In this document: piece after piece, positions 13,511 to 56,877 of the stretch
Numbering within the stretch: the first letter of the stretch is position 1
Layout: every line of letters begins with the position of its first letter
From: Dehalococcoidia bacterium
GTDB taxonomy: Bacteria > Chloroflexota > Dehalococcoidia > Bin125
Reading direction: 5' to 3'
Assembly: GCA_963663235.2 (NCBI GenBank)
Contig: CAXXNO010000006.1
Coordinates: 128,001 to 192,000, forward strand
DNA: 64,000 bases
Notes under the pieces: model-generated
Databases searched by the model: none
What the model was told of the DNA's origin: nothing
What the model saw: the letters and a program-made list of their open reading frames with translations, nothing else
Translations under genes and position numbers: made by a program

Positions 13511-13747
13511 CCCGTTGTCGACGCACCACCCTCTTGCGCGGCGCAGCCGCGCCAAACGACACCATGACCTCCAACGCCCTACGCCCCCGTCAGCCGCACC
13601 CGATCCCCCACCCCGGCGCCGTTGTCGGCGAACCACCCTCCTGCGCGGCGCAGCCGCGCCAAACGACACCGTCACCTCCAACGCCCTACGCCCCGGTCAG
13701 CCGCACCCGATCCCCCACCTCGACGCCGTTGTCGACGAACCATCCTT
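13511..13747. repeat. 107-bp tandem repeat (about 2.2 copies) containing the 3' end of the DUF192 gene
   Basis: GTTGTCG..G.ACCA at 13514, 13621 and 13728; stop-codon context repeated at 13579 and 13686. Confidence 0.9.
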
Positions 13748-14405
13748 GGTTAACCTCTAACGCCCAGCGATACGCCGCGCCTGGGCTGTGCAGCTCTCTC
13801 GTCAACGGCTCCATGTCCTGGATGTCGATGATCACGCCGTCTCGGTCGATGAACGCGATCGACAGCGGCACCAGCGTGTTCTCCATCCAGAACCCGCCCC
13901 TCGTGTCCGCCGCGAACAGGAACAGCATCCCCGCGTCCGCCCCCAGCGACTCCCGGAACATCAGCCCCCGCGCCCGCTCCCCCGCCGTGTCCGCCAGCTC
14001 GACTCGCACGATCCGCACCGCGCCCGACGCCGTCTCCACCGCCAGCAGCGCCTCGGCCTCGGCCCGCGCGGGCTGCGCCCACGTCACCTCTCGATCGGCT
14101 CGCAGCCAGTACGCTTCGCCGGGCTCAAGTTCCTCCAGCGTCGCGAGCGACGGCGCCGCGCGGAACCAGCTCTCCCACCCCTGCGACGCCGCCTCCCAGT
14201 GCCACACCGCGTCCACCGCCTCCGCCGCCGCCCCCAGCGCCTCCTCGACCGGCAACCGCTCGCCCGCGTACACCACGTTGTTCCACCCCGCGCGGAGCGT
14301 CACGTCGGCCGATTGCGCCTCCGCCTGCGGCGCGAGCAATCCCGCCCCCACGAGCAGGCTCGCCAGCACACCCAGCACCCCAGCCGCCGGCAGATTCATA
14401 AGCAC
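13686..14405 (-). CDS. Secreted DUF192 family protein with an N-terminal GWN-type module
   Basis: VELADT..ERARGLMFRESL, GMLFLF, FWMENTLVPLSIAFID and ALEVNQGWF; signal peptide ending AEA/Q. Confidence 0.92.
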   Translation of the reverse strand: MLMNLPAAGVLGVLASLLVGAGLLAPQAEAQSADVTLRAGWNNVVYAGERLPVEEALGAAAEAVDAVWHWEAASQGWESWFRAAPSLATLEELEPGEAYWLRADREVTWAQPARAEAEALLAVETASGAVRIVRVELADTAGERARGLMFRESLGADAGMLFLFAADTRGGFWMENTLVPLSIAFIDRDGVIIDIQDMEPLTRELHSPGAAYRWALEVNQGWFVDNGVEVGDRVRLTGA

Positions 14406-14434
14406 AGCCTACGGCAGGCCACCGCCCGCCACCC

Positions 14435-14885
14435 CCGTTCGCTCTGCCTGCCCTGAGCCTGCCGAAGGGCCAAAGGTGGGGCGGGGGAGTGAGGCCCCTT
14501 CTCCCGCCCCGTTCGTCCTGAGCGAAGCCTGTCCTGAGCTTGTCGGAGGGTCGAAGGAGAACGGGGCAGCCCTGTGATCCTTCCCCCTCTTCCCCCTCTT
14601 CCCCCTCTTCCCCCTCTTCCCCCTCTCCATCCTTCCCTCCCGGGAAGGATGGAGAGGGCCTGTCCTGAGCGAGCCGCAGGCGAGTCGAAGGGGGCCGCGG
14701 TCAGGTCTACCCCCACACCCTCCGCCGCGCACAATTGCCGCTGCCCACCCCCGACGCCCCACTCGCGATGGAATAAAAACCCCCTCGCCATCGCTTGCCG
14801 ATGGAGAGGGGGCCAGGGGGTGAGGTTTCCCCTTCCCTGCCCTGAGCCTCCCCTGAGCCAGCCGCGGGCGAGTCGAAGGGGGCCG
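14435..14885. repeat. REP/BIME-like mosaic cluster including a (CTTCCCCCT)n tract
   Basis: Same modules as elsewhere plus CCCGTTCGTCCTGAGCGAAG and GGGCCGCGGTCAGGTCTACCCC...CGCGATGGAATAAAACCCCC. Confidence 0.9.
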
Positions 14886-14905
14886 GGACTGAGGTCAGCG
14901 CCGGA

Positions 14906-16297
14906 TCAATTCGCCGGCTGGAAGAGCGGGTTTCCGCCCACGACGAACGCCTGCTCTGCCGAGATGTCGGTGGCGTCCGTGTCGTGGAACATGAAGTTCA
15001 TGCCGTCGGGGCACTCGTCCGCTTCCACGATGCCATCGCCGTTGGTGTCGAAATCGATAGAGCACTCCGGCGTGTCGCCGATGACGTCGAATGCCCCACC
15101 GTCGGACTCGCTGGTGTGGAACAACCCCAGCAGATGCCCTGCCTCGTGCCAGGCGGTCGTCGCGTTCTGGGCCAGGGTGAAATCCTCCGCGTTCGCCGTG
15201 ACGACGACACACGAGGTGCTGCTGTCCTCCAGGACGGTGGCGCCGGGAATCCCGGCCGCGTTGCCGAGCGTCGTGCCGAACGGGTCGTCGGGATCGACCA
15301 CGCGATCGATGATCACGAAGTGCAGGCTGCGGTCTTGTCCGAACGTGTCCGACATCGCCTGGCAGAGCTGGCGTTGTGACGTGTCGATGCCGTTCGTCGG
15401 CAGCTGGAGGTCCCCGAACTCGGCGGTGATTTCCGCGGGCGCATCAATGAAGCGCACGGTCCCGATGCCGAGATCGAAGGGACCGAAAATATCGTCGGCG
15501 CGCTCGCGGAAGATCGTTTCGATGTTCGCGCGGCCCGCCTCGTCGGCGACTTCGTCGCTTGAGGTGGCCACCCAGAACGTGACATCCAGGACCTGCGCGG
15601 CCCCGGCCGCATCCCCCTTAACGATGGCCTGCGCCGTCGTCGCGACGTCGGCTTCCACCGTGACCGTGTACTCGCCGGGCGTGAGCGCCGCTTCGCCGTT
15701 CAACGGCGCCAGGACGGAGCCCTCACCGAAGTTCTGCAGCGGCTCAATGAGCGCATCCAGCAGGGAGCCGCCGTCCGGTCCAGTGACGTCCACGATGGTG
15801 ACCAAATCGTCGATGCCCGGCGCCTGCGCGACGAAGAGGAACGACGTTTCGCCTTCCTGCACCGTGACGGTCACCGTGCCGCCGCCGGCAGGGATGGCGC
15901 CGAGGTCGGCGAAGCGCAGGTCACCGCCGTCCGCTTCTGGCGGCGGCGGTGCTTTCCCGTCCAGGGCGATCTCCTGCGAACCCTCGGAGACGACCCAGAG
16001 CACGTCGCCGTCCGACAGTGCAAAGTCCACGACACCAAGGAGGGGGACGAAAGACGTCCAGTTGACGGCCAAGGGGTCGAACAGCCAGGCGATCTTCACC
16101 GTGCCGAACACGTCACTGGCGCTGAAGCCGGGACCGAAGGTCCAGAAGAGGAACTGTCCACCGTCGCTAAGAGAGATGGTGTCGCCGGGCTCCTGCGCCT
16201 CGACGTCGGATCGGGCAGGCAGGGCCCCGAGGAGGGAGATCGTGAGGATGAGGAGGACGAGGAGTTGGACGGCGCGGGCGCGGCGGATCCTGGGCAT
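14906..16297 (-). CDS. Secreted metzincin zinc metalloprotease (M43/pappalysin-like) with an N-terminal DGGQF-type module
   Basis: HEAGHLLGLFH zinc motif, D.IGDTP and Met-turn NFMF; Ca-loop-like DTNGDGIV; signal peptide. Confidence 0.82.
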   Translation of the reverse strand: MPRIRRARAVQLLVLLILTISLLGALPARSDVEAQEPGDTISLSDGGQFLFWTFGPGFSASDVFGTVKIAWLFDPLAVNWTSFVPLLGVVDFALSDGDVLWVVSEGSQEIALDGKAPPPPEADGGDLRFADLGAIPAGGGTVTVTVQEGETSFLFVAQAPGIDDLVTIVDVTGPDGGSLLDALIEPLQNFGEGSVLAPLNGEAALTPGEYTVTVEADVATTAQAIVKGDAAGAAQVLDVTFWVATSSDEVADEAGRANIETIFRERADDIFGPFDLGIGTVRFIDAPAEITAEFGDLQLPTNGIDTSQRQLCQAMSDTFGQDRSLHFVIIDRVVDPDDPFGTTLGNAAGIPGATVLEDSSTSCVVVTANAEDFTLAQNATTAWHEAGHLLGLFHTSESDGGAFDVIGDTPECSIDFDTNGDGIVEADECPDGMNFMFHDTDATDISAEQAFVVGGNPLFQPAN

Positions 16298-16399
16298 GGA
16301 CGACTCCGTCTGTTGGGCTGGCCTTGAGCGATCGGCGGTCAGTCTAGTAGGGCGGGGCCATCGACAACACCGACGCCGAGCGCACCACCTGTACCGGCC

Positions 16400-17120
16400 C
16401 AGAACGGGCCGCGGTCAGGTCTACCCTCCCGCACCCTCCGCCGCGCACAACTGCCGCTGCGCCGTCCCCCACGCCCCACTCGCGATGGAATAAAACCCCC
16501 TCGCCGTCGCTTGCCGATGGAGAGAGCCTGTCCTGAGCGAGCCGCAGGCGAGTCGAAGGGAGCCTGCCGCCCTGAGCCTGTCGAAGGGTCAAAGGTGGGA
16601 CGGGGGAGTGAGGCCCCCTCTCCCGCCCCGTTCGTCCTGAGCGAAGTCGAAGGAGAACGGGGCAGCCCTGTGATCCTTCCCCCTCTCCTCCCGCTCTCCA
16701 TCCTTCCCAGGAGGGAAGGATGGAGAGCGCCTGCCAGGAGCGAGCCACAGGCGAGTCGAAGGAGGGCCAGGGGGCGCTTGCGCCCTTCGCACAGCGGAAG
16801 GGTGAGGTCTCCCCTCCCCGTCCTGTGCTCATCGAACGGGCCGCGGTCAGGTCTACCCCCCCCCCACCTTCCGCCGCGCACAACTGCCGCTGCGCCGCCC
16901 CCCACGCCCCGCTCGCGATGGAATAAAACCCCCTCGCCATCGCTTGCCGATGGAGAGAGCCTGTCCTGAGCGAGCCGCAGGCGAGTCGAAGGAAGGCCAG
17001 GGGGCGCTTCCGCCCTTCGCACAGCGGAAGGGTGAGGTCTCCCCTTTCCCTCTCGTTCCTCCCCTCTCCATCCTTCCCAGGAGGGAAGGATGGAGAGGGG
17101 GCCAGGGGGTGAGGTTCCCT
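16400..17120. repeat. Largest REP/BIME-like mosaic cluster (~720 bp)
   Basis: Multiple copies of all modules; 16404-16560 is repeated at 16835-16992. Confidence 0.92.
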
Positions 17121-17182
17121 CGCCTTGCGACGCTCGACTCCCAGCGCTACCTTCCGCCCGCAGTCTCCAGGAGTGCCACCCC

Positions 17183-18235
17183 ATGAAATTTGGCGTCCTC
17201 TTCGACTTCCGCAACCCCGCCCCGCCGCTCGGCTCCGGCCGCTCGACCCCGGATCTCTACGCCACCATCCTCGACCAGGTGCAGCAGGCCGAAGACCTCG
17301 GCTACGACGACGTCTGGCTCACCGAGCACCACTTCCTCGACGACGGCTACCTCCCCTCTCTCGCTCCGATGGCCGCCGCCATCGCCGCTCGCACTTCGCG
17401 CGTCACGATCGGCTTCTTCGTGCTGCTGATGCCCTTCCACCACCCCATCCGCCTCGCCGAAGACCTCGCCGTCGTCGACAACCTCAGCAACGGCCGCCTC
17501 CTCTTCGGCCTCGGCGTGGGCTATCGCTACCCGGAGTTCACGGCCTTCGGCATCGACCGCAAGTTCCGCGGCTCCATTACCGATGAAGCCGTCCAGATCA
17601 TGATCAAGTGCTGGGAGGAAGAGGAGTTCTCCTTCCACGGCAAGCACTTCAACTTCGAGGGCGTCCGCTGCACCCCCAAGCCCGTCCAGAAGCCCCACAT
17701 CCCCGTCTGGTTCGGCGCGACGCAAGGCGAGGCCCTCAAACGCGCCGCCCGTCTCGGCGACGGCCTCCTCCACACCATCGCCGCCCCCACCGATGCCCCC
17801 CTCAAGTTCGCCCAGCACCTCAAGGAGTACGGCAAGGACTGGCGCAACCCCCACGTCCTCTCCATGGCCTTCCTCCACACCACCAACGACCCCCAGTGCG
17901 ACTGGGACGCCCTCAAGCCCCACGCCCTCTACCACGCCCAGGGCTACGCCACCTGGTACGCCCAGGACGAGAACTGGCAGGAGGGCACCAGCGCCGCCAA
18001 CTTCGGCGGCGACTACCCCCGCGACTACGCCACCCTCGAGCGCCTTGGCCACTACACCGTCGGCACGCCCGACCAGATCATCGCCAAAGTCAAAGAGGTC
18101 TACGCCCAAGCGCCCTTCGAGCGCTTCCTCTTCCCCGCCCTGCTTCCCGGCGCCGATCCCGCCCTCTCCGCCCGCTCCCTGGAGCTCTTCGCCACGGAGT
18201 GCATCCCCGCTCTCCGCGACCTCGACGCCAAGTAG
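17183..18235 (+). CDS. LLM-class flavin-dependent oxidoreductase (luciferase-like monooxygenase)
   Basis: AEDLGYDDVWLTEHH, HPIRLAED.A.VD.LSNGR, PKPVQKPH.P.W and VGTPD. Confidence 0.95.
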   Translation: MKFGVLFDFRNPAPPLGSGRSTPDLYATILDQVQQAEDLGYDDVWLTEHHFLDDGYLPSLAPMAAAIAARTSRVTIGFFVLLMPFHHPIRLAEDLAVVDNLSNGRLLFGLGVGYRYPEFTAFGIDRKFRGSITDEAVQIMIKCWEEEEFSFHGKHFNFEGVRCTPKPVQKPHIPVWFGATQGEALKRAARLGDGLLHTIAAPTDAPLKFAQHLKEYGKDWRNPHVLSMAFLHTTNDPQCDWDALKPHALYHAQGYATWYAQDENWQEGTSAANFGGDYPRDYATLERLGHYTVGTPDQIIAKVKEVYAQAPFERFLFPALLPGADPALSARSLELFATECIPALRDLDAK

Positions 18236-18239
18236 CCTT

Positions 18240-18320: not shown

Positions 18321-18323
18321 CCT

Positions 18324-18680: not shown

Positions 18681-18687
18681 GCCGCCC

Positions 18688-19080: not shown

Positions 19081-19115
19081 CGTCCTGCCTTTCTCTTCTC
19101 CCGCGCGCGCGACCC

Positions 19116-19808: not shown

Positions 19809-21050
19809 TGACCTGCCCCCCCAGAACCGGTCCAGATCCTGTGCGAGGATTCGGGCCGGTGCGAAGGGAGTCGGCATGGCACGCAAGCGGTACGCGGCCG
19901 AGGAGATCATCGGCCACCTGCGGGAGGCGGAGGGGGTGCTCGCGCAGGGGGAATCGGTCGCGCCGGTCGCGCGCCGCCTCGGCGTGGCCGAGCCAACGTA
20001 TTACCGCTGGCGGCGGGAGGACGGGGGGCTGCGGGTCGACCCGGCCAAGCGGCTGAAAGAACGGGAGCGCGAGAACAGTCGGCTGAAGCGGGTGGTGGCC
20101 GATCAGGCGCGGGCCAACGCGATGGTGCGGGACGTCGCAGCGGGAAACTTCTGAGCCCGGCCACGCGGCGCCGGGCGACATCCTACCGCACGGACCCGTA
20201 CGCGGTGGCGGAGCGGCGGGCCTGCCCGGTCACCGGCCAGGCGCGGGCGACCCAGCGCGACGTGCCCCGGCCGTCCCCGGATGCGCCGGCGCTGATCGCG
20301 CGCAGCGTCGCGCTGGCCCCCCGCTGCGGCCGCTACGGCTCCCGTCGCATCCCGGCCCGGCTGCGCCAGGCGGGCTGGCGGGTGAACCCCAAGCGGGTCG
20401 AGCGGCGCTGGCGTCAGGAAGGCTGGCGGGTCCCCGGGAAGCACCCCCAACGGGGCCGCCGCTGGCTCGCGGCCGGCTCGCGGGTGCGGCGGCGGGCCGA
20501 GCGGCCGTCCCACGTCTGGTCCTCCGCCTTCGTCTTCGACCGCACCGCCGAGGGGCGCCCGGTGCGGATCCTCGCCCTCGTGGATGAGGACCACCCGCGA
20601 GGGCCTGCGTCTCGACGTCGCCCGCCGACGGCGCCGCGACGACGGCCTGGCGCGGTTGGCCCAGCTGTTCGTCGAGCGCGGGCCGCCGACGTTTCTGCGG
20701 TCCGCCAACGGCCCGGCGTGCACCGCCACCGCGGTGCGGGACTGGCTGCACCGGGTCGGGGGCACGACCCGCTTCATCGAACCGGGCAGGCCTTGGGCGA
20801 ACGGCTCTGGGGAATCGTTCAACGGCAAGCTGCGCGACGCGTGCCTCAATCGCGAGCGCTTCGACACCCTGCTGGAAGCCCAGATCCTCATCGCGGGCTG
20901 GCGGCGGGAGGACAACCCGATCCGCCCCCACCGTGCCCTCGGCTCCCGCCCCCCCGCCCCGGAAACGCAGCAACCCCGGGAACGTCCCATGACGCGCGTC
21001 CCGGCGATCGGACTCACTTAACGACTGGTACAACGATCGGGGGCAGGTCA
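19809..21050 (+). mobile_element. IS3 family (IS407-like group) insertion sequence, degenerate copy 2 (inverted relative to copy 1)
   Basis: 1242 bp, same IRs; orfA at 19876-20154; orfB dead with the same frameshift; 18 substitutions versus copy 1 by manual comparison. Confidence 0.95.
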
Positions 21051-21054
21051 AAGA

Positions 21055-21215
21055 GGGAACCTCACCCTTCCGCTGTGCGAAGGGCGCAAGCGCCCCCTGG
21101 CTCTCCTTCGACTCGCCTGCGGCTCGCTCAGGACAGGCCCTCTCCATCGGCGAGCGATGGAACCTCACCCCCTGGCCCCCTCTCCATCGGCAAGCGATGG
21201 AGAGGGGGAGGAGAC
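21055..21215. repeat. REP-like composite unit (~160 bp)
   Basis: Near-identical to the reverse complement of 3581-3745. Confidence 0.9.
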
Positions 21216-21217
21216 GA

Positions 21218-21595
21218 CTAGTCGTCGGAGACGAGGACGCGGCCGTCGACGACGCGGGTGCGGAAGGTGCGGATGCGCTTGGGATTGAGCCACTTTTCGA
21301 GGAAGGGTGGGAGCGGGGGCGCTTTCTGGTCGAGGACGTGCCAGAGACCGCGGGGGAGCCACTTTTTGGTCTCGCCGGTGCGGAGGTCGAACTCGGAGTC
21401 GTGCCAGGGGCAGACGATGTTGGAGTGGTCGAGATGGCCCACCGAGAGGGGGGCTGCGAGGTGGGGGCAGCGATCCTGGACGGCGAAGAGTTCACCATCG
21501 AGGTTGGCGACGCAGACGCGTTGCCCGTCCACCTCCCCGGCCGTGACGGAGCCGGGCGGCAGGTCGGCCAGGGCGCAGATATCGGCTTCGGGCAC
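21218..21595 (-). CDS. Rieske 2Fe-2S ferredoxin
   Basis: CPHL...CPWH..EFDL.TG. Confidence 0.95.
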   Translation of the reverse strand: MPEADICALADLPPGSVTAGEVDGQRVCVANLDGELFAVQDRCPHLAAPLSVGHLDHSNIVCPWHDSEFDLRTGETKKWLPRGLWHVLDQKAPPLPPFLEKWLNPKRIRTFRTRVVDGRVLVSDD

Positions 21596-22508: not shown

Positions 22509-22514
22509 CGGTTT

Positions 22515-22800
22515 TCTCTCTCCATCCTTCCCAGGAGGGAAGGATGGAGAGACCTCACCCCCTGGCCCCCTCTCCATCGGCAAGCGATGGAGAGGGGGTT
22601 TTATTCCATCGCGAGCGAGGCGTGGGGAGCGGCGCGGCGGGGTCGTGCGCGGCGGAGGGTGCGGGCTGCCGCGAGGGTAGGGGAACCTCACCCTTCCGCT
22701 GTGCGAAGGGCGCAAGCGCCCCCTGGCGCCCTTCGACTCGCCTGCGGCTCGCTCAGGACAGGCTCTCTCCATCGGCAAGCGATGGAGAGGGGGAGGAGGA
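22515..22800. repeat. REP/BIME-like mosaic cluster between convergent genes
   Basis: Same module set as the other clusters. Confidence 0.9.
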
Positions 22801-24357: not shown

Positions 24358-27300
24358 CTAGGGCGCGGCGCCGATTTGCTCCCAATCCAGCGCGTGGTCG
24401 CTGACGGTCTGGTTGAAGATGAAGAGGCCACCGAAGCGGTTCGCCGTCGTGAAGGTGCTGAGGAAGAGCGCCTGCCCGCGGCGGAAGATCTCGTACTCCT
24501 GCACGGGCGCAGCGAAGCGGAAGGCCGCGCTCACACCGGGCGGCAGGCCGGCCAAGAGGTCGGCGAGGGCGGCATCGCTTGCGCCGGTGTAGCCGACGAA
24601 GGTGAAGCCGGGCTCGATCACCACGCCGACGGGGCCAGCCGTGAGGACGTTGGGAAGCGTCACGGTGGCGGTCACGTTGGCGGGGAGACGGATGAAGAGG
24701 ACGTCGCGCTGGTTGACGGTGACGAACGTGTTCAGGCCGGGGACGCTGACGTCCGGGCGGTGCACGAGCCAGATCTGGGTGCTGGCGCGGAAGTTGAAGA
24801 CGCTGTCCATGATGGGGCCCACGGCGTCGACGATGTCCTGAACCGGGGTGCCGTTGGGGCCGGTGAAGACGATGGCGTTGAAGCCGCCGACGAGGGTGAA
24901 GGTGATGTCCGCGCCGCCGGGCTGCTCTTCCGTTGCATCGACGCCGTCGCAGTCCTGATCGATGCCGTCGCCGACGATCTCCGGGGCGCTGGGGAAGGTG
25001 TCGGGGTCGGTGTCATCGCAGTCGGGCGTCCCGCCTGTGGCCTGGCCGGCGGCGAACCCGTCGCCGTCCACGTCGTTTAGGACGCTGCCGTCGCAGTCTT
25101 GGTCGATGCCGTCGTAGAGGATCTCGGCGGCGCCGGGGAAGATGTTGGGGTCGGTATCGTCGCAGTCGGTCCCGCCGGCCGCGATGTCATCAAAGCCATC
25201 GCCGTCGGCGTCGGCGCCGGAGAACTCGACGGCACCGATGTCGGTCGTGCCGAGGCGGGGAACGCCGCGCTGGTCCGCGGGGGTCGCCCCCACGTCGTCG
25301 CCCGCGTCGATGGCGGGGCTGCCTGGGAGCAGTGCGTGCGTGAAGGTGGGGCCGCCGTTGTTGGCCAGCGGGCCGAGGAGGGGGTCGACGCCGGGCAGGT
25401 CATCGAGCGCCGTCAGATTGCAGGTGCCGTCGAGATCGATGTTGTTGTTGAGGGAGACGACGGGGCCGACGCAGTCGCCGCCGCTGTTGCCGGCGACGAT
25501 CGTGTTCTTGAGCGAAATGGGGCCGCCAGCGTGAGCGACCCCCCCGCCCGAGGCGCCGGCGAGGTTGTCCGTGATGGTGGTGTTCGTCAGCGTCGCGCTG
25601 GCGGGACCTTCGTTGAGGATGCCGCCACCGACGCCGAGCGTCGTGTTGCCGCTCAGTGTGCTGTTCGTGAGCGTCAATGCTGCGGTTGATCCATTCTCGA
25701 TCCCGCCGGCCTTGGCGGTGCCCGTGTTTCCGCTGATCGTGGTATCGCTGAGCGTTGCGCTTCCCTCTCTGATGGTGAGGCCGCCGCCGCCCGCCGCCGT
25801 GTTCCCGCTCACCGTCGTGCGGGTCACGGTGACCATCGCGCCGGCGCCGGTGCTGCGGAGCCCGCCGCCGTTCCCCCCCCGCTACGTTGGCGGTGATTGC
25901 GCTCTCCACGACGGTGAGGGCGCCGACATTTTGATGAACGCCCCCCCCGAAAGCCGCTGCGGTGTTGTTGCCGATCGTACTGAGCGTCAGCGTGACCGAG
26001 CCGCCGAGGTTAACGATGCCGCCGCCGCTGGTGCCGGCGATGTTGCCGGTCACGAATGAACTGGTCAGGTCCAGTGTTGCAGCGTTGTTGTTGACGATGC
26101 CGCCGCCGAGGCCGTTGGTGGTGTTGTCGCTGACCGTGCTGTCGATCAGCGTGGCCGTTGCGCCGGGGCCGTTCCAGATCCCGCCGCTGTCCAGGTCGCC
26201 GAAGTTGGCGGTGACGGTGGTGGCCGGCAGCGTCAAGAGGTTGCGGTTCGCGATTCCTCCGGCCCCGAAGGGGCTGGCGCTGTTGCCGCTGATCGTGCAA
26301 CCCGTCAAACTCAGCACGCCAGCGTCCATATTGGAGATGCCACCGCCGCCGAAGTTCCCGTTCCCCGCGTTGTTGCTGACGATGCAGGTATCCAAGGTCG
26401 CGGCGCCGTCGTTCCAGAGGCCGCCGCCGAAGGCCGCCACATTGTTATCGAGAGTGGTGCCAGAGAGCGTCAGCGTCCCTACATTCCAGAGGCCGCCGCC
26501 ATCGGTCACCGCTGAGTTGTCGCTGACAATGGAGTCGGAGAGCGTCAAGGTCGCGCCGACGTTGTTGATGATGCCGCCGCCGGGGCCGTTGGTGAGGTTG
26601 TTGGAGACGGTGGTGCCCGTCAGCGTGGCCGTAGCGCCGGGGCCGTTCCAGATCCCGCCGGCGTCCGCATTGCCCAAGTTGCTGGTGATGATGCCGGCGG
26701 TGATCGTCAACGTGCCGCGGTTGGCGATGGCGCCGGAGCCGGAGGGGGTGGCGGTGTTGCCGTTGAGCGTGCAGCCATTCAGATCCATCACACCGCCGGA
26801 GGCGTTGGAGATGGCGGCGGCGCCGAAGGGGCCGGTGGCCAAGTTCCCGGTGAGGGAGCAGGCTGTCAAATTGGCGACGCCGCTGCTGAAGAGGCCGCCA
26901 CCGGTGGATGCGAAGTTGCTGTCGATGATATCGCCCGTCGAAGTGAGAGAGCCGGCGTTGAAGATGCCGCCGCCCTCATCGCTGGCGACGTTGCCGCTGA
27001 TGGTGCTAGTCGAGATGGTCGCCGACCCGGCGGGCAGGAAGAAGGGAAAGCCAATGGCGGCGGAGGTCGCGATCGCGCCACCGTTCGTGGCGGTGTTGCC
27101 GATCAGGGTGGAGTCGGTCAGCGTCAGGGAGCCGGCCGCGACGTTAATGGCACCGCCAGAGCCGCCGCCGGCGTTGCTGCCTGTGATCGTTACGCCCGAG
27201 ATGTTGAGGGATTCGCCGACGAGCACGTGGAAGACGCGATCGATGCCGGCGCCGTCGATCGTGGTGGCCGCGAGGCCTGCGCCGATGATGGTGACGGCGC

Positions 27301-27688
27301 CGCCGCCGCCGGCGATGTCGAGGTCGCCGGTCATGGCGGCGTCCTCGTTGGCCCCGGCGATGGTGAGGGTGAAGGTGCCGGCGATCAGGGTGATGGTGTC
27401 ATCGCCCGCGAGGGCGTTGGCTTCCATGATCGCGGCGCGCAGCGTGCAGGCAATAAAGCCGCCGGCTGAGCAAATGCCGTCGCCCGGGTTGATGTCCACC
27501 GCGTCAGTCCCCGTCGTGACCGTGAAGTTTGCGCCGTGGGCGGTATCCGAGGTGAGTAAGAGCGTGAGCGAGGCGGTGAGCGTCGCTACGACGACGACGA
27601 TAGCGGCCAAGAAGGAGGCCGCGGGGAGGGGGCGACGGCCCCGGGCGGCAGCGCGGATGAGGTTCAGGGGGCGAGCGTCGAGGTGCAT
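24358..27688 (-). CDS. Large secreted CSLREA / right-handed beta-helix (choice-of-anchor Q-like) adhesin with DCDD metal-binding repeats and two C-terminal GWN-type modules; +1 frameshift in the C8 tract at 25873-25880
   Basis: [11 protein letters not shown], many GGGI.N/GGAI repeats, [29 protein letters not shown] and DCDD.DP...[14 protein letters not shown]; split into ORFs 25400-27706 and 24358-25836. Confidence 0.85.
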
Positions 27689-27875
27689 GGGGCGTTCCTC
27701 TCGCAAAGGCGCGGCGCGGCTGTGTCGTTGGCGGGGCGTCGCAGGTGAAGTCGAAGGCTACGACGCGAGGGAGGGGGGGCAACGACGCGAGCGGGCGCCG
27801 CTTAGGCCGGGAGCGGGCGGAGGGGAAGGTCGAAGACGGTGTCGCCGACGGGGGTGAAGCCGGGTCTCAGCGCTC

Positions 27876-29839
27876 TCAGCCCACGGCGATGGTCCGCTGC
27901 CCCACCGACACGACCCAGAGGAAGTCCCCCGGCGCGAGCGCGAAGTTCACCGTGCCCAGGGGGGGATGAACGCCGTCCAGCTCAGTCCGAAGGGGTCCCA
28001 CAGCCAGGCGATCTTCACCGTCGCGAACACATCCGCAGCCAGCGCCGTACCGAACTGCCAGAACACGAACTGGCCGCCGTCCCTGAGCATCAACTCACCA
28101 ACGGGAGGCTCCTCCTCCTCGGGCATCATCTCGTCGTCGGCCTTGCCGAGCAGGTCGCTGCCGTCGCAGTCCTGATCGATGCCGTCGTCCGCCACCTCGG
28201 GCGCGCCGGGGAAGATGGTGGGGTCGGTGTCGTCGCAGTCCGTGCCGCCCGCGGCGATGGAGTCGAAGCCGTCGCCGTCGGCGGCCGCGACATCATCGAA
28301 GCCGTCGCCGTCTGCGTCCGCGTCCTGGAACTCGACGGCACCGATGTCGGTCAGGCCGACGCGGGGGAGGCCGCGCTGGTCGGTGGGGGGCGCGCCCACG
28401 TCGTCGCCGGCGTTGATGGCGGGGCTGCCTGGGAGCAGCGCGTGCGTCTGGGTGGGGCCGCCGTTGGCGGCCAGCAGGCCGAGGAGCGGGTCGGTTGCGG
28501 GCAGGTCACCGCCAGCTCCCAGGTTGCAAGTGCCATCGGAATCGATGTTGTTGCCGAGGGAGACGAGGGGGCCGTCGCAGTCATCGGGACCGTTGGCCGC
28601 CACGATGGTGTTCTTCAGGGTGGCGCTGTTGCCGCTGTGCCGGATGCCGCCGGCTACAGCGGCGTTGTTGCCGGCGATGGTGCTGTTGACGACCGTTAGC
28701 GCGCCGCCGCCGGTGTTGAAGATGCCGCCGACGCCGACCACCGCGGTGTTGCCACTCACCGTGCTGCTGGTGAGCGTCAGCATGCCTCCAGCATTGGAGA
28801 CGCCGGCGCCGACAACGGCAGCGGTATTGCCGCTCACGGTGCTGTTGGTGAGCGTGGCGATGCCGTCGTCGTTGAAGACGCCGCCACCATCGGAGCCCGC
28901 ATTGTTGTTGCCGACTGTGCTGTTGGTGAGTGTGGCGATGCCGTCAACGTTCCAGATGCCCCCGCCATCGGAGGGTGTCGCCGTGTTGAAGCCGACCGTG
29001 CTGTTGGTGAGCGTCAGCGAGGCAGCGCCGCCGGTGCTGGCGATGCCGCCTCCGGCGTTGGCTGTGTTGTTCGTGACGCTGGTGTCTGTCAGCGTCAACG
29101 CGCCGGCGTTGAAGATGCCACCGCCCTCATCGGTGGCGGTGTTTCCGCTGATGGTACTGGCCGCCAGGGCCGCCGACGCGGCGGGCAAGAAGAAGGGGAA
29201 ACCGGTGGCGGCGGAGATGGCGATTGCGCCGCCGTCCATGGCGGTGTTTCCGCTCAGCGTCGAGCGGGTCAGCGACAGGGAGCCGCCCGCGACGTTAATG
29301 GCGCCGCCAGAGCTTCCGGCGGCGTTGCCGTCGACGATGGTGACGCCCGAGATGTTGAGCGTTGCGCTGAAGAGCACGTGGAAGACACGGTCGATGCCGC
29401 CGCCGTCGATGACGGCGGGAGAGTCGAGGAAGTCGGCGGTGATGGTGAGGCTGTTGCCGGCGTCGGTGATGTCGAGGTCGCCGGTCATGGCGGCGTTCTC
29501 GTTGGCCCCGGCGAGGGTGAGGATGTAGTTACCGGGGGGCAGAGTGATGGTGTCGTCGCCGTCGAGGGCGTTGGCCTCCATGATCGCGGCGCGCAGCGTG
29601 CAGCCCGGCAGGCCGGCCGAGCAGATGCCGTCGCCCGGGCTAAAGTCCACCCCGTCAGACCCCGTCGTGACCGTGAAGTTTGCGCCGTGGGCGGTATCCG
29701 AGGTGAGCAGGAGGGTGAGCGAGGCCGCGAGCGTCGCCACGACGACGACGATAGCGACCAAGAAGGAGGACGCGGGGAGGGGGCGACGGCGCCGAGCGGC
29801 AGTGCGGATGAGGTTCAGCAGGTGAGCGTCGAGGCGCAT
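27876..29839 (-). CDS. Paralogous CSLREA / beta-helix secreted protein with one C-terminal DGGQF-type module; -1 frameshift in the G7 tract at 27959-27965
   Basis: N-terminus nearly identical to the neighbour; adding one base restores PLGTVNFALAPGDFLWVVSVGQRTIAVG*, homologous to the M43 protein module. Confidence 0.85.
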
Positions 29840-50862: not shown

Positions 50863-52224
50863 CTACAAGATCTGGGCGGCGCGGAGATCGGCGAGGGCAC
50901 CCTCGAAGGCGTCGACGGTGGCGTCGATGTCGGTGTCGGTGTGGACGCAGGAAACGAGCGCGCCCATGCCGATCAAGTCGACGCCGCGGTTGAGGAGGCT
51001 TCGCCGGAACGGCCAGACGACCGCGGCGGGCGTGGTGGGGACCGTGGCCTGCGGGGCAGCGCCGTCCCAATTCCAGGTGAAGTCATCGATGGGTGGGGGG
51101 ACATCGCGGCCGAGGACGATATGCAGCATGGAGGCGTCGCCGTAGACGGCACCCGGCACCTCAGCGCGCCGGATGGCGGCGTTGAGATCGCCTGCCAAGC
51201 GACGGGCGCGCTCGTTGGCGATGCGGACCGGCTCGCCGGTGGCGACCTCGGCCAGAGTGGCGACGCCGGCCGCGGCGCTCAGGGGGTTGGCGTTGAAGGT
51301 GCCGGGATGGCTGACGCGGCCGGTATTACGCTCGTCGCCTTCGCGGATGGCGATCTGGTCGATGAGGTCGGCGCGCCCGACCACGGCCCCGCCGGGCAGA
51401 CCGCCGGCCAGGACCTTGGCGAGGGTCGTGAGGTCGGGCGTGATTCCGAGACGCTCCTGGAAGCCGCCCGAGGAGGCGCGGAAGCCGGTCACTACCTCGT
51501 CGAAGATGAGAATCGTGCCGGTGGCGCGGGTGCGCTCGCGCATGAGCTCCAGAACAGACGGGTCCAAGGGCCCGCCGCCAAAGTGGTAGCCCCCGGGCTC
51601 ACAGATGGCGGCGGCGATGGTACCGGTGTCGAGGGCGGCGGCGATGGCGTCGGTGTCGTTTTGGTCGACGGTGGTCACGGTGGCCTGCCACTCGGGCGGG
51701 AGGCCAGCGGTGCTGAGCAGCCCCGCGGACATCCGCGCACCGCCCGCCGTGACGCTGTCGTTCCAGCCGTGGAAGTGGTGGCGGAGCTTGAGCAAGCCGG
51801 TGCGGCCGGTGGCGGCGCGGGCCAAGCGGACGGCCATCATGGTGGCCTCGGTTCCCGAGGCCGTGAAGCGGACTCGCTCCGCGCTGGGAAACAAGGCCTG
51901 GACGGCCCGTGCCCAGCGAATCTCCAGATCGTGTGATGCGCCGTAGTGGGTGCCGCGCTCCACCTGGCGCTGCACGGCCTGTACCAACGAGGGGTGCGCG
52001 TGGCCCAGCAGCAGCGCCCCGTGGCCCATCACGTAGTCGATGATCTCATTGCCGTCGGCGTCCCACTTGCGCGCGCCGGCGGCGCGGTCGATGTAGGGCC
52101 CGAAGGGAGGGAAGTAGCGGACGTCATGGGTGACGCCGCCGGGGAAAAAGGTCTCCGCCTCCTCGTGCAGCTCGGCGGAGCGCGGGTGCAGGGCGGTGTA
52201 GCGATCATCGATCGTCGAGGTCAT
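50863..52224 (-). CDS. Class III aminotransferase, glutamate-1-semialdehyde aminomutase-like
   Basis: PGGV, SGTEATM.A.R.ARA.TGR, IFDEVVTGFR, AKVLAGGLP and GTFNANP. Confidence 0.93.
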   Translation of the reverse strand: MTSTIDDRYTALHPRSAELHEEAETFFPGGVTHDVRYFPPFGPYIDRAAGARKWDADGNEIIDYVMGHGALLLGHAHPSLVQAVQRQVERGTHYGASHDLEIRWARAVQALFPSAERVRFTASGTEATMMAVRLARAATGRTGLLKLRHHFHGWNDSVTAGGARMSAGLLSTAGLPPEWQATVTTVDQNDTDAIAAALDTGTIAAAICEPGGYHFGGGPLDPSVLELMRERTRATGTILIFDEVVTGFRASSGGFQERLGITPDLTTLAKVLAGGLPGGAVVGRADLIDQIAIREGDERNTGRVSHPGTFNANPLSAAAGVATLAEVATGEPVRIANERARRLAGDLNAAIRRAEVPGAVYGDASMLHIVLGRDVPPPIDDFTWNWDGAAPQATVPTTPAAVVWPFRRSLLNRGVDLIGMGALVSCVHTDTDIDATVDAFEGALADLRAAQIL

Positions 52225-52369
52225 GGGGCCACCTTTCCGCAGGACCGCAGGCGCCGCGGCTCATGGATCGCGTCAAGCCTAGCGGCTGGCGCGGTCCCCC
52301 ACACGGCCGAAACCCCAGCGAAAGCGGCGGGGTCCGGCGGGGGCGCCAAGCGCGGCGAAACAGGCGGGC

Positions 52370-52584
52370 TCAGGCGGCGTAGGACATCACCCGCTCCCAG
52401 GGACCGAACAGGGCGAAGCCGCCGCAGCGCCCGCAGACCAGCCCCCCCGGCGGGTCTGCGCCACCGGAGCGGCGCTGGGCCGGTCGGGCGCGGGAAGCAG
52501 CCGGGTGTGGCCGTCCTTGCGCTGGACGCTTCCCAAGTTGCGTCCACAAGACAGGCAGGTGATCTCGGCGACCTCAGCGGGCAT
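52370..52584 (-). CDS. Small zinc-ribbon protein (CxxC...CxxC), -1 frameshift in the C7 tract at 52442-52448
   Basis: MPAEVAEITCLSCGR...; adding one G gives ...TRRGGLVCGRCGGFALFGPWERVMSYAA*; SD GGAGG upstream. Confidence 0.65.
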
Positions 52585-52726
52585 CGTCGCCCTCCCTCCG
52601 CGCATGCCGATCACGCCATAGGGCGATTCTTCACGGGTCGCTTAATCTACGCATCAGGTGCGGACCCGGTTTCGCGGCCGGGAAGCGCCGATCCGGCGGC
52701 CGGTGGGACCGTAGGGGGAAGGGTTT

Positions 52727-53038
52727 TCAAGAGGCGGGCGGGGCGGCAGCCTGGCGGACGATCGCCGCCATCTGGTAGGCCAGATCGGAGGTCGCCAAGG
52801 AGACGTAGACCTGCCCGCGGCGCCGTTCGACGCGAATCAGATCGGCGTGCTCGATGACGCGGAGGTGGCTGGAGACCGCCGGCGGCGTGATGCCGAGTTG
52901 ATCGATGAGCTCGCGGCAGGCGTGGGCCGATCGGTCCGCGGCGAGGGTGCGTATGATCTCGTACCGGGCCTCGCTGGAGAGGGCACGGAAGGCGTTGAGC
53001 CTGCGCCGGTCGGCTGTAGGTCCTCTGCGATCGTTCAT
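52727..53038 (-). CDS. ArsR/SmtB family transcriptional regulator
   Basis: FRALS...R..II..L, C.EL...LGIT.PAVS.HL.V and RRGQ. Confidence 0.9.
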   Translation of the reverse strand: MNDRRGPTADRRRLNAFRALSSEARYEIIRTLAADRSAHACRELIDQLGITPPAVSSHLRVIEHADLIRVERRRGQVYVSLATSDLAYQMAAIVRQAAAPPAS

Positions 53039-53136
53039 CGATTCACTAATAGGTGAACGTCTGTGCTGCGGTCCATCAAGAGACCGCGTGAACGGACAGG
53101 GTGGCCGCGGCGAGGCATCTCGTATGATCGGGCGGC

Positions 53137-53895
53137 ATGGACATCACACGGCGTCAGGCGCTGTTGTTGATCGCGGTCGTCGTGGGCACAATGGCGGCCC
53201 TGGTCATCGCGGATCAGATCGTGGAGCGGTACTCACCGTGGGACTTCGACGACTTCGCCGAGTGGATCGACGGGCTGGGGGCGGCCGGGCCGATCCTCTA
53301 TATCCTCGCGTTCGCGGTCTCGATGGTGATTGCGCCGTTGCCGACGTTCCCAGCGCCGTTCGCGGCGGCGACCGCGTTCGGGAGCGTGGCGGCCTTCTTC
53401 TACACCCTGTTGGGGGGGGCGATCGGGGGGGCGCTGTGCTTCTGGATCGCGCGGCGCTGGGGCCGGCCGGCGCTGCAACGCTTCCTGCCCGAGAAGTTCG
53501 TGAGGGAGATCGACCGAGTCGCGGACCGGATGGGGCTGCGGGTTCTGTTCTTGCTGCGGCTGTTTCCATTGCTGGGCGCGGACGTCGTTTCGTATGGGGC
53601 GGGGCTCACGCCGATCCGCTTTCCGGCCTACCTGGCGATCTCGATCTTGGCGTCGATTCCGGTGTTGCTGTTGATCTCCATCGTTGGGGAAGAGGCGCGG
53701 GAAGACCGCATTGTGGCAGGGATCGCGCTGGCGGCGCTGGCCGCCTTCCTGATCCTGCCGCTTCTGTATGTGGTGGTGCGACGTCGACGGCCGCCGCAGG
53801 CATCGCCGGCCGGAGCGTCGCCGGCTGCCGCGTCGACCGACCCGCCACAGCGCGCGCGTGACTCCGGAGCGGGGGCGGACGGGGAGGGCGGCTAG
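53137..53895 (+). CDS. TVP38/TMEM64 (VTT/DedA-like) membrane protein
   Basis: FWIARRWGR, LLRLFPLL..DVVSYGAGLT.I.F..Y. Confidence 0.93.
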   Translation: MDITRRQALLLIAVVVGTMAALVIADQIVERYSPWDFDDFAEWIDGLGAAGPILYILAFAVSMVIAPLPTFPAPFAAATAFGSVAAFFYTLLGGAIGGALCFWIARRWGRPALQRFLPEKFVREIDRVADRMGLRVLFLLRLFPLLGADVVSYGAGLTPIRFPAYLAISILASIPVLLLISIVGEEAREDRIVAGIALAALAAFLILPLLYVVVRRRRPPQASPAGASPAAASTDPPQRARDSGAGADGEGG

Positions 53896-54671
53896 CGCCC
53901 CTGCCAGACGGGCGCCCGGCCCTCCGCGAAGGCGCGCGGCCCCTCGATGGCGTCCTGCGATTGCCACATCAGGCGCACATTGTGGGAGAGGTGCTCGATG
54001 GCGGTGATCAGCGGCATGTCCTGGCCGCGGTAGGCGGCCTCCTTGCTGGCGCGGATGGAGAGCGGGGCGCAGGCGATGATCTCGTCGGCCCAGCGGCGGG
54101 CGGCGGGGAGCAGATCGTCCGCGGGGACTAGCTCGTTGACGAGGCCCCAGCGCAACGCCTCCTCGGCCGGCATGTAGCGGGCAGTCAGGATGTAGCCCAT
54201 GGCGATGCGGGAGGGGATCTGCCGCGGCAGGCGCTGAACGCCGCCGGCGGCGGCCATGAGGCCGACGGTGGGCTCGGGGAGCCCGAGGCGAGCGCCCTCG
54301 GCGCAGATGATGATATCGCAGGCAAGGGCCATCTCCAGCCCGAGACCCAGCGCGTAGCCGTGCACGGCCGCGATCATCGGTTTCCAGCACTCGAAGTCGC
54401 GGGTGATTGCGCCGCCGCCGCCCTTGAGCAGACCGCTTGCGGAGGTCTCGCCGGTGGCGGCGGTGTGCTTGAGGTCGTTGCCGGCGCTGAAGGCGCGTCC
54501 GGCGCCGGTGAGGATGGCGACCCAGGCATCATCGTCGGCCTTGAAGCGGGCCCAGGCGTCGACGAGCTCGGCGGTGGCCGGGGGGTGGATGGCGTTGAGC
54601 CGCTCGGGGCGGTTGAAGGTGATGGTGACGACGCGATCGGTCTGGTCGTAGGTGATGAACTCGTAATCCAC
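53892..54671 (-). CDS. Enoyl-CoA hydratase/isomerase family protein (CaiD-like)
   Basis: TFNRPERLNA, GRAFSAGNDLK, IAAVHGYALG.GLE and GLPE..VGL.A.AGG. Confidence 0.95.
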   Translation of the reverse strand: MDYEFITYDQTDRVVTITFNRPERLNAIHPPATAELVDAWARFKADDDAWVAILTGAGRAFSAGNDLKHTAATGETSASGLLKGGGGAITRDFECWKPMIAAVHGYALGLGLEMALACDIIICAEGARLGLPEPTVGLMAAAGGVQRLPRQIPSRIAMGYILTARYMPAEEALRWGLVNELVPADDLLPAARRWADEIIACAPLSIRASKEAAYRGQDMPLITAIEHLSHNVRLMWQSQDAIEGPRAFAEGRAPVWQGR

Positions 54672-54782
54672 GGTGGTCCTCCACTCCGGTCGAAATCCAG
54701 CGAGACGCCCGCAGTCTGGGCGGAGCGCGTCCGCGCCGTCAACCGAACGAGGGGAGACGGCAGCCGATATGCTGAGCCGGCC

Positions 54783-55817
54783 GTGGACAGGAATCGAGAC
54801 CTGGATCGCCTGCCGCCCCTGAGCGTCGAAGAAGAGAGCGCGTACGCGGAAGGCCAGGCGCTGCGCGCGCTGGCCCGCGAGCGGCCGCCGGGCTGGATCG
54901 ACCGCTGCGTGGAGGCGGCGCTGCAGGGGGCGCATCCCTTCCCGCGCGGCGAAGCACGGATCGCGTTGCAGTTCGCGCCCGCGGAGGCGGTGGTCGCGGC
55001 GCTGCTGCCAGCGCTGACGTCGGAAAACCGGCGGCTGCGGCGGCGGGCGATGACGTTGCTGCCGCGGCTGGAGGCCGGCGAGGTGGCGCGGCAGATGGAG
55101 CGATGGCTGCCGACGGCGTCGCGGGAGGGGAAACGAGCGGCGTGCGTGGTGCTGGCGGCGCTGGGTGAAGCGGGGTCGGCGCTGCTGCGCGGCCTGCGCG
55201 ACGATCCGGAGCCGGCGGTGGCGCGTCGGGCCGGGCGGGCGCTCCAGGCGCTGCAGGAGCGGACGTCGTCTGCGACGGCGGGAGAGTTACCGGAGTCGGC
55301 GGAGCGCCCGTTCGGGCTGCGGCCGCCCGAGGGATTGCCGCCGCCGCGCCGTCACCCGTTCGCGGTGGCGGCGTTCAACTTCTCCTACGGCGTCAACCTG
55401 GGCGTGCTGATCCGCAGCGCCGAGGCGGCGGGGGCGCAGGCCGTGTGGATCGTGGGGCGCGATTTCTACTACCGGCCGTCGACGAAGGGGAGCGACTGGT
55501 GGCTGCCGGTGGAGGTGATCCCGAGCCCGCGCGCGTGCATCGAGCGGGCGCGGGAGGAGGGCTACGAGATCGTGGCGGTGCAGCAAGGGGCGGAGGCGCG
55601 ATCGGTCTACGACGTGGACTGGCCGGAGCGGCCGCTGATCGTGGTGGGGAACGAAGGGGACGGGCTCCCAACGGCGTTCCTGGCGGCAGCCGCACGGCAG
55701 ATCAGCATCCCAGTGGCCGGGGTGATCGACAGCCTGAACGTGGCCGTGGCGGCGAGCGTGGCGATGTATTTCTACCTGGCCCATGTGGAGAGCCGAAGCG
55801 CGAAGTTCTCGACATAA
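54783..55817 (+). CDS. HEAT-repeat plus SpoU/TrmH family RNA methyltransferase fusion
   Basis: C-terminal NLGVLIRSAEAAG, VVGNEGDGL and IPVAGVIDSLNVAVA; N-terminal LRDDPEPAVARRA..AL HEAT-like repeats; start approximate. Confidence 0.8.
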   Translation: MDRNRDLDRLPPLSVEEESAYAEGQALRALARERPPGWIDRCVEAALQGAHPFPRGEARIALQFAPAEAVVAALLPALTSENRRLRRRAMTLLPRLEAGEVARQMERWLPTASREGKRAACVVLAALGEAGSALLRGLRDDPEPAVARRAGRALQALQERTSSATAGELPESAERPFGLRPPEGLPPPRRHPFAVAAFNFSYGVNLGVLIRSAEAAGAQAVWIVGRDFYYRPSTKGSDWWLPVEVIPSPRACIERAREEGYEIVAVQQGAEARSVYDVDWPERPLIVVGNEGDGLPTAFLAAAARQISIPVAGVIDSLNVAVAASVAMYFYLAHVESRSAKFST

Positions 55818-55917
55818 AGATTCGATGGCCGTGTGGCCCATCGAGAGGCCTGGGACACCGTTAAGCCGACGTAAAGCGAGGCCGACCGCGGGTCGATCCG
55901 GCCCGATCGAGCAGGCT

Positions 55918-56877
55918 ATGTTAAGTCGCGTGCGACGGGGTCGGATCTCTCGAAGGGCGTTGCTGCACCGCGGGCTAAGCACCTCGCTGGGGGCCGCGGC
56001 GCTCGGAATCGGCGTGCCGGTGGCCGCGCGGCGCGCATCGGCGCAGACCTACGTGCCGGGGAGCCAGCAGCCGAGCCTCTACGCAGGGTGGAACGCCGTC
56101 CCGTGGCTGGGACCGGCCGTGGCGGCCGAGGAGGCTTTGCGGGACCTCCCCCTGGTTGTCGCGTACCAGCGGGACAACGACGAAGGCACCTGGCGGTCGT
56201 ACCGGCCGGAGTCGAGCGTCAACGAGCTACGCGAGATCGGCTACACCATGCCGCTCTGGCTGCAGCTCCATCGGGGGGGAGACTGGCAGCAGCAGCCCGA
56301 GCCGCCCGGCCTCCCCGACAACGTGCTGCTGCCGGGCGGTTGGTCATTCGTCAGTTGGACCGGCGACGACGTCCCAGTGTGGACAGTGTTCGGCGAGACT
56401 ACCGCGTCGCCGATCGTGCAGGCGGTGCGATGGAACGCCGCGGAGCAGCGGCACTACGCGTATATCCCTAGTGTCGCGGCCCTGGAAGAGTTCGCCATCC
56501 TGCACGGCGGCGACGCGATCTGGCTGAACATCGACGTCCCGGGCCAAACCTGGAACCCCGCGCTCGGACTGGGGATCGATCCCGTGGAGCCGGGAGTGTT
56601 CCAGGGGCAAGCGACGTTTTTCTGGTCCGGCCTGCAAGGGCAGACGATGTACTGCGGCGGCTCGTACGATCGCCATGACCCGACGATCGCCGCCACGACC
56701 TCGTGGCCGTGCGGGACGCGCCTGCGGATCTGGCGGGGCGAGCGTTCCGTGGACGTGGTGGTGCAGGACCGGGGCGCGCTGGGCCCGTACCACATCGACC
56801 TGTCTGAGGCGGCGTTCCAGCGGATCGCGGATCTGGCCGAGGGGCACATCGACGTGCTGATCGAACCGCTGCTCTGA
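55918..56877 (+). CDS. Tat-exported protein with two GWN-type modules and a C-terminal RlpA-like DPBB domain
   Basis: SRRALL twin-arginine signal; ATF...G..M.CGG.YD, WPCGTRL.I, V.VQDRG and IDLS.AAF..I..L..G. Confidence 0.88.
   Translation: MLSRVRRGRISRRALLHRGLSTSLGAAALGIGVPVAARRASAQTYVPGSQQPSLYAGWNAVPWLGPAVAAEEALRDLPLVVAYQRDNDEGTWRSYRPESSVNELREIGYTMPLWLQLHRGGDWQQQPEPPGLPDNVLLPGGWSFVSWTGDDVPVWTVFGETTASPIVQAVRWNAAEQRHYAYIPSVAALEEFAILHGGDAIWLNIDVPGQTWNPALGLGIDPVEPGVFQGQATFFWSGLQGQTMYCGGSYDRHDPTIAATTSWPCGTRLRIWRGERSVDVVVQDRGALGPYHIDLSEAAFQRIADLAEGHIDVLIEPLL

Follow-up and report, generated by a model that had tools for sequence, protein, structure and literature searches.

We examined a 64,000-nucleotide stretch of a Dehalococcoidia bacterium genome (assembly GCA_963663235.2, contig CAXXNO010000006.1, positions 128,001 to 192,000; hereafter the window) in which five exported proteins share a small repeated domain, here called module A. 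Our analysis indicates that module A is probably the plug of a predicted non-covalent docking system, the socket being an anchored domain, domain B, encoded elsewhere in the genome. The novelty lies in this candidate receptor; both parts are apparently undescribed, and the docking logic is known from cohesin-dockerin. Cargo proteins, each with one or two A domains at either end, would be exported by Sec or by twin-arginine translocation (Tat) and would dock on a B domain at the tip of an envelope-fixed stalk, held by an LPDTG sortase signal in the source genome and by a membrane helix or other tails in other lineages. Contact would be made by an aromatic sheet exposed on A (positions 32, 34, 41 and 62), which would clasp B at its proline-rich start and its last strand. 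The founding client was probably a large surface protein encoded directly before the anchor gene, and dozens of proteases, adhesin-like proteins and wall enzymes of the source lineage would have copied its plug. Such a system would explain how dozens of enzymes and adhesins, and probably a surface layer (S-layer), are hung on the cell, and it names both halves of a probable surface-display apparatus in a little-studied class that abounds in sediments, soils and oceans.

Module A, its carriers and its spread

Seven copies of module A were found in the five exported window proteins, at the positions given in the original prediction, which had described the module from the letters of the window. 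The carriers and copies are listed below, with signal peptides called by eye and hydropathy and not by SignalP.

13686–14405, minus strand: carrier 1, exported DUF192 protein (signal peptide, module A, DUF192; PF02643 E value 1e-31, over cut-off)
14064–14306, minus strand: module A of the DUF192 protein, single, GWN type, aromatic face W/W/W/W (profile; AlphaFold model)
14906–16297, minus strand: carrier 2, exported zinc metalloprotease, M43-like (below cut-offs)
15953–16180, minus strand: module A of the protease, single, GGQF type, the copy modelled with domain B (profile; complex model)
24358–27706, minus strand: carrier 3, adhesin 1 (profile matches to CSLREA, beta-helix, choice-of-anchor Q and MopE-like repeats)
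24652–24903, minus strand: module A, adhesin 1a, first of a C-terminal pair (profile)
24367–24627, minus strand: module A, adhesin 1b, second of the C-terminal pair (profile)
27876–29839, minus strand: carrier 4, adhesin 2 (profile matches to CSLREA and choice-of-anchor Q), last 27 codons in another frame
27879–28096, minus strand: module A of adhesin 2, single, GGQF type, C-terminal, frameshift-split at the C7 run 27959–27965 (profile)
55918–56877, plus strand: carrier 5, Tat-type exported RlpA-like protein (DPBB_1 over cut-off; open frame from 55783)
56068–56301, plus strand: module A, RlpA a, first of an N-terminal pair, three of four aromatic face residues kept (profile)
56320–56568, plus strand: module A, RlpA b, second of the N-terminal pair, two of four aromatic face residues kept (profile)

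The predicted cargo identities held. DUF192 and DPBB_1 exceeded their cut-offs, both adhesins matched CSLREA and choice-of-anchor Q profiles, and the protease fell below cut-offs (Pfam E value 0.007, leptolysin E value 5e-6) with an HExxH zinc motif present. The RlpA-like gene probably starts at 55918, with its twin-arginine motif at 55948. The module itself is as real as predicted but measures 75–85 residues, not about 70.

Pairwise alignment of the window copies was uneven. Five of 21 pairs were significant (z 6.8–25.5, with none of 300 shuffles reaching the score), namely the DUF192 copy with adhesin 1a, RlpA a and RlpA b, adhesin 1a with 1b, and the protease with adhesin 2. The GWN-type copies thus formed four linked pairs at z 7–14 and the two GGQF copies paired at z 25, whereas pairs across the subtypes reached at most z 3.6. 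The protease and adhesin 2 copies are identical at 43 of 70 aligned residues (the two frames of adhesin 2 aligned separately), against 41 of 64 in the original prediction. A hidden Markov model built from the seven copies identified 67 domains in 53 open reading frames (ORFs) of the 2.75-Mb genome, and the iterated search converged on 80 domains in 59 ORFs, with the best reversed-sequence match at E value 0.12. The possibility that the copies do not align as one family was tested by this profile search, which left a clear gap to reversed-sequence noise. Of the 25 GGQF ORFs, a profile of the 55 non-GGQF copies recovered 14 at E<1e-3 and 22 when the threshold was relaxed to E<0.05, and it matched the window protease copy at E value 0.008 against a best reversed match of 0.056; the reverse search, with a GGQF profile, found only one of 34 ORFs. 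Pairwise scores fail across the subtypes and the profile bridges them, so homology of the copies is shown at profile level. All 25 GGQF copies in the genome are single and are 60 % alike, compared with 25 % for the 55 non-GGQF copies, 42 of which are paired. Two contigs of the source genome (G000) share a nearly identical stretch encoding the same carriers (C6:567-3800 and C12:49699-52359), which means that a few of the 80 copies are duplicates.

Across the genome, 43 of 65 module A ORFs displayed a signal-like hydrophobic start or twin-arginine motif, judged by eye; the remaining 22 begin inside a protein, and only some were traced to an upstream piece. Cargo in the 52 ORFs scanned included subtilases, trypsin, wall enzymes (M23, SH3, RlpA), kelch, FG-GAP, beta-helix, CHRD and amine oxidase domains. 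The module was C-terminal in 32 of 60 genome ORFs and placed elsewhere in 28. It was found in none of the genome's 41 predicted lipoproteins, a count resting on heuristic gene and signal-peptide classes that missed several clear signals and put 22 carriers in the class 'none'. Amongst the best 150 library matches, 142 had a Met start, of which 94 had a signal-like start and none a lipobox, and a membrane helix followed module A in two of the 150. The missing lipobox, the rarity of a later helix and the want of lipoprotein carriers together indicate that module A goes with proteins that have no other anchor. Exported carriers, placement at either end and the lack of any family match bear out the proposal of a portable, undescribed surface-display module. 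The 'sorting' role proposed beside it was not upheld, as the module is predicted to form a globular fold and is found at both termini as well as within proteins.

Comparison with known domains supported the novelty of module A, which had no match in Pfam or NCBIfam and none amongst Protein Data Bank (PDB) sequences (best E value 0.11); its ESM Atlas matches were unnamed clusters only. The AlphaFold model of the DUF192 copy is compact, with six predicted strands and one helix (predicted local distance difference test score, pLDDT, 97.8). Foldseek with this model gave no match at E<=0.001, and the best VIA-align match had Z 4.0 with a root-mean-square deviation (rmsd) of 3.2 over 64 aligned residues, none of 48,161 entries reaching Z>=5, a lack of fold match that does not prove a new fold. 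Neither module A, domain B nor the pair is described in the full texts searched, a coverage that mostly excludes subscription journals.

The module A family comprises 12,325 clusters at 50 % identity. It was present in 137 of 301 genomes of the Dehalococcoidia class, in 20 of 20 of the source genome's family and in 24 of 201 genomes across the phylum, with named carriers in ANME-1, ANME-2, Thermoplasmatales, Poribacteria, Neomoorella thermoacetica, Cloacimonadota and Dehalogenimonas. In archaea, Bacillota, Poribacteria and Cloacimonadota it mostly forms a C-terminal pair (C-terminal in 111 of 120). This spread does not support the lineage-specific module originally proposed; what is confined to certain lineages is the expansion to tens of copies. 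One query of phage and plasmid records gave no match. A circularly permuted module A, its first strand (L-x-x-GWNLIGW) moved to the very C-terminus, was seen at the C-termini of L084, L090, L091 and L092, which are genes preceding B; such forms are expected of an autonomous domain.

Domain B and its gene neighbourhood

Domain B is seen in low-copy relatives, where the gene right behind a carrier encodes a signal peptide, a B domain of about 90 residues, a variable stalk and a C-terminal anchor. Immediately behind the signal peptide, B opens with a proline-rich strand, PPxPP-h-x-F-x-G; in 53 of 58 library matches it began no later than residue 70. The source genome holds seven B domains, none in the window. 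Six lie in ORFs that also carry module A, and the seventh is a dedicated anchor, a 206-residue protein (G000:C4:128749-129366) encoded directly behind a broken gene ending in a GGQF module. Its LPDTG-helix-RR tail has the LPxTG motif, hydrophobic helix and basic tail of a sortase substrate in a genome with sortase, and would be processed by that enzyme; its match to the NF058571 GVDTG sorting domain was weak (24.8 bits, under the cut-off of 29). Two of the seven B domains have a sortase-type tail, and the other six LPxTG-type ORFs of the genome are without domain B. As the genome encodes two sortases, both over cut-off, and a class A penicillin-binding protein, it has the machinery that the anchor needs. 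These genes also qualify the premise of an atypical, S-layer-like envelope, in that the genome resembles the peptidoglycan-plus-S-layer Tepidiforma and not Dehalococcoides. No SLH domain was found in the genome, which is 92 % complete. The two sortase genes lie directly before a module A carrier at G000:C12:460899-464496.

In other lineages B is anchored by a C-terminal membrane helix or other tails. B domains with such other tails occur in P0337, P0344, P0311-P0314, L062 and L066, the tails being a putative SLH, a membrane tail of PGF-like type, a dockerin-like end that follows three B repeats and a cohesin, and a short C-terminal F/Y-L-P-L-h motif. One genome of the source family, G345, had 14–15 matches to the B anchor compared with 1–7 in its relatives. 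The gene preceding the B anchor in the source genome (L067, G000:C4:129407-131583) has many frameshifts, a signal peptide, Ig-like sequence and a short duplicated stretch at its end.

The modelled B fold resembles a generic transthyretin/CnaB-like sandwich (Z up to 6.5, rmsd about 3, 75–84 aligned residues), and no known family matched domain B consistently. The cohesin profile (PF00963; model length 139) matched none of 48 B domains at E<=0.1 amongst the 25 of 26 families listed, and no cohesin was present amongst the 50 fold matches listed for a B-A-A model. A metagenome scan with the genome's B gave no match.

Gene order links the two domains. The class search gave 523 B matches, and we fetched 110 loci around the 150 that were listed. 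With the six seed genomes excluded, 41 of the 65 anchored B genes with room upstream lie no more than 900 bp behind a gene ending in module A, in 33 of the 45 genomes with an anchored B. The background for this order in the source genome was 26 of 2623 genes, and one of 68 single-anchor exported genes, namely the B gene itself. A set of 36 loci rich in Tepidiforma-like records contained 32 sortase-type B ORFs with an upstream A, two without and three lacking room. In Tepidiforma flava YIM 72310, a 1448-residue exported protein ending in A is followed by B with a PPATG-helix-RR tail. The size and signal peptide of the protein before the anchor, and its conservation (47–60 % identity among five relatives), suggest that the founding client in Tepidiforma was probably the S-layer protein.

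The two domains also co-occur. Both were present in 127 of the 301 class genomes, A only in 10, B only in 49 and neither in 115, so that B was found in 127 of 137 A-positive genomes; this tally rests on a capped number of candidates scored per search, covers kin that are not independent and is the only one that includes the B-only genome G396. Numbers match in low-copy genomes, with two carriers and two B domains in G057, one of each in G069 and neither in three genomes of genus g3. A and B are fused in Chloroflexota and Cloacimonadota. Proteins consisting of nothing but B and one or two A domains were seen in the source genome (C4:584130, C11:123546, C14:4789) and in relatives (P0011, P0039, P0115, P0125, P0350), and multi-B proteins in L096 and P0311-P0316.

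The original prediction had also proposed two subtypes with different receptors. The module before an anchored B is GGQF-like in the source genome's family and GWN-like in Tepidiforma and small-genome lineages; as both subtypes end the gene preceding an anchored B, a single receptor family serves the two. The proposal of a distinct receptor family for each subtype is therefore not supported; the genome's seven B copies may differ in their preferences.

The predicted complex and competing readings

When the window protease module was folded together with the LPDTG-anchored B, the predicted complex scored 0.66, and the best of three controls 0.00. The score mark was reached by 116 of 157 solved pairs and 2 of 215 mismatched pairs, a calibration that holds only roughly for a complex built on self-made alignments with their first seven rows in matching locus order. 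Model runs agreed in at least 97 % of contacts, with partner pLDDT at least 88. The predicted contacts of the protease module are K29, I30, W32, F34, W41, S43, V45, W62 and V64, of which W32, F34, W41 and W62 would pack on the PPLPP start and residues 82–86 of B. These four positions are aromatic in 77, 93, 94 and 94 % of 457 module A domains. No similar complex was evident in the PDB by sequence or fold.

Covariation gave a modest signal in the same direction. From 91 cognate gene pairs, 86 were aligned and 57 remained after removal of near-duplicates; across these, the 25 contacts listed of 41 predicted covaried with a mean z of 0.71, which none of 60 partner shuffles reached (p 0.0008 against random columns, 0.002 against entropy-matched columns and 0.010 within interface columns). 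In the 38 pairs unseen by the model, z was 0.54, with p values of 0.003, 0.007 and 0.068 for the same controls. The predicted complex and covariation, with the A-then-B gene order and co-occurrence, support the earlier guess of a cohesin-like scaffold with a conserved partner gene, and suggest that A would bind B in the cell.

Several observations weigh against this docking reading. Gene order fails for 24 of the 65 anchored B genes, which have no A gene in front; the gene before the source genome's own B anchor is broken by several frameshifts and is like the Tepidiforma protein only in the module. Presence is likewise uneven, with 49 genomes having B without A and 10 A without B, and outside the class 119 of 120 carrier chains, from archaea, Bacillota and others, lack B, the search for B there covering the same chain only. 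The source genome has 80 A domains to seven B domains, two of these with a sortase-type tail. On the structural side, the interface is overall no more conserved than the rest of either domain (A, p 0.34; B, p 0.80), the strictest held-out covariation control is not significant, and the covariation is weak, with an effective 29–46 sequences and one of the 15 top pairs a predicted contact. The rough calibration of the complex score counts here too, and the single modelled pair is a GGQF copy that leaves the five GWN-type window copies outside it, RlpA copy b keeping just two of the four face aromatics. The GWN-type window copies may also bind the genome's B.

Direct binding of module A to wall glycan or peptidoglycan, in the manner of SLH, CWB2 or a carbohydrate-binding module, with the B gene a neighbour for some other reason, would accommodate some of these points. 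An exposed Trp/Phe/Tyr face is typical of sugar-binding modules and is present on module A, the cargo includes M23, SH3 and RlpA-like wall enzymes, and a glycan receptor would suit 80 plugs for few sockets, the 10 genomes with A alone and a genome without SLH. It would leave unexplained why B genes follow A genes, why the two domains are fused in Chloroflexota and Cloacimonadota, and what gives rise to the complex score and the covariation. Some carriers, moreover, belong to archaea and to Dehalogenimonas, the latter being reported in PMC10284905 as peptidoglycan-less or else unstudied. We consider glycan binding improbable.

The frequency of tandem pairs, seen in 142 of the best 150 library matches (a score-biased set) and in 116 of 120 others, indicates that A packs on A, and would suit a module that binds other A domains or the S-layer lattice, with B one of several partners or a tether of the S-layer only. 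PMC10284905 describes unexplained complexes on both sides of the Tepidiforma S-layer, which such binding might account for. All 25 GGQF copies are single, however, and for one of these a one-to-one complex with B was modelled with confidence, which makes this alternative quite improbable.

The B-A-A fusion folds with a predicted template modelling score (pTM) of 0.77, which hints at, and does not show, B packing on a GWN pair. Together with the B-plus-A(-A) and multi-B proteins noted above, this model raises the prospect that small B-A or B-A-A proteins chain head to tail, as filaments or a mesh, from anchored B to cargo, or that A-B is mostly an intramolecular structural unit. As the pTM is silent on contact between B and A inside one chain, and the two domains are for the most part encoded by separate genes, we regard chain-building as very improbable as a replacement for docking; it is an extension of the plug-and-socket reading rather than its opposite. 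A broader form of that reading, in which A and B are a widespread bacterial and archaeal docking pair with a new plug fold, a sortase-anchored B stalk holds the S-layer on the wall in Tepidiforma-like Dehalococcoidia, dozens of enzymes and adhesins have taken over the plug of the S-layer protein, small B-A-A and multi-B adaptors branch the array and the anchor has changed between sortase tail, membrane helix, SLH and other tails along with the envelopes, is put forward tentatively and with somewhat less than even confidence.

Relation to known systems and other features of the window

SLH and CWB2 are helical triplets that bind wall polysaccharide. Module A is like SLH (PF00395) and CWB2 (PF04122) in being portable and in occurring alone or repeatedly, at either end of unrelated exported proteins that have no lipid or membrane anchor. 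Their profiles matched none of 66 A domains, and the evidence for module A points to a protein receptor. The closest parallel in logic is dockerin and ScaE of Ruminococcus flavefaciens, the latter described in PMC2930009 as an LPXTG-anchored single cohesin that receives dockerins. There, too, a small portable module on many exported proteins meets an LPxTG-type single-domain receptor encoded beside the main client. Unlike dockerin, module A is mostly beta and lacks the duplicated calcium-binding loop. The dockerin profile (PF00404) matched none of 66 A domains at E<=0.5, and no conserved Asp-rich loop was found in 457 aligned A domains, the model having one helix and six strands. Domain B is a sandwich of about 90 residues with no cohesin sequence match, and the predicted contact, unlike that of the ScaE system, sets an aromatic sheet on a proline-rich strand, with anchors swappable between lineages. 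The pair would thus add a calcium-motif-free plug and socket beside cohesin-dockerin, and would offer a small thermophile docking pair for protein engineering.

The order of a large surface protein gene followed by a membrane-anchored stalk gene recalls SlaA/SlaB of Sulfolobus (PDB 8qox). The link here differs in being a discrete module reused by dozens of other proteins, and B resembles SlaB in fold only in a generic way (Z 5.4, rmsd 3.5, 81 aligned). The Tepidiforma envelope consists, according to Palmer et al. (PMC10284905), of a membrane, peptidoglycan and a tetragonal S-layer. Johnston et al. (10.1101/2024.05.28.596244) report a new, predicted Tepidiformales S-layer protein class, in T. 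thermophila, and 'many novel' anchoring domains, left unnamed. Neither main text names module A or its partner; module A may appear in the supplements of the latter. The pair gives a testable account of how Tepidiforma may fix its S-layer to the wall, the cultured T. flava having both genes, and its recognition would annotate more than 12,000 nameless protein clusters.

Both adhesin genes are frameshifted in homopolymer runs, G8 at 25873–25880 and C7 at 27959–27965. The adhesin 1 gene is thereby split into two ORFs, 25400–27706 and 24358–25836. Contigs of other sequencing runs were compared at the following feature.

25873–25880, minus strand: G8 run at the adhesin 1 frameshift

The G8 run was the same in contigs of runs X1 and X2, X1 possibly being the source sample of this assembly, whereas X7 and X9, runs of two other studies, lacked a base at 25873 (depth under 3). 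The C7 run had one extra base, at 27965, in run X9 only (depth under 3). Long-read error was considered as the cause of the frameshifts and rejected, as the same frameshifts were present in contigs of two studies. The length variation of the G8 run fits slipped-strand on/off switching or recent decay.

Other features of the window were also noted. Behind the DUF192 gene lie about three tandem copies, of 107 nt each, of the gene's own 3' end (13505–13746). Repetitive extragenic palindromic (REP)-like mosaic repeats of shared palindromic blocks occupy intergenic regions at 14440–14900, 16400–17120, 21050–21330 and 22510–22800. An exported protein with repeated F5/8 type C-like domains and without module A is encoded at 10786–13340 (minus strand), apparently split by a frameshift. 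A broken IS3-like transposase fragment lies at 20100–21220, with a similar fragment at G000:C6:341496.

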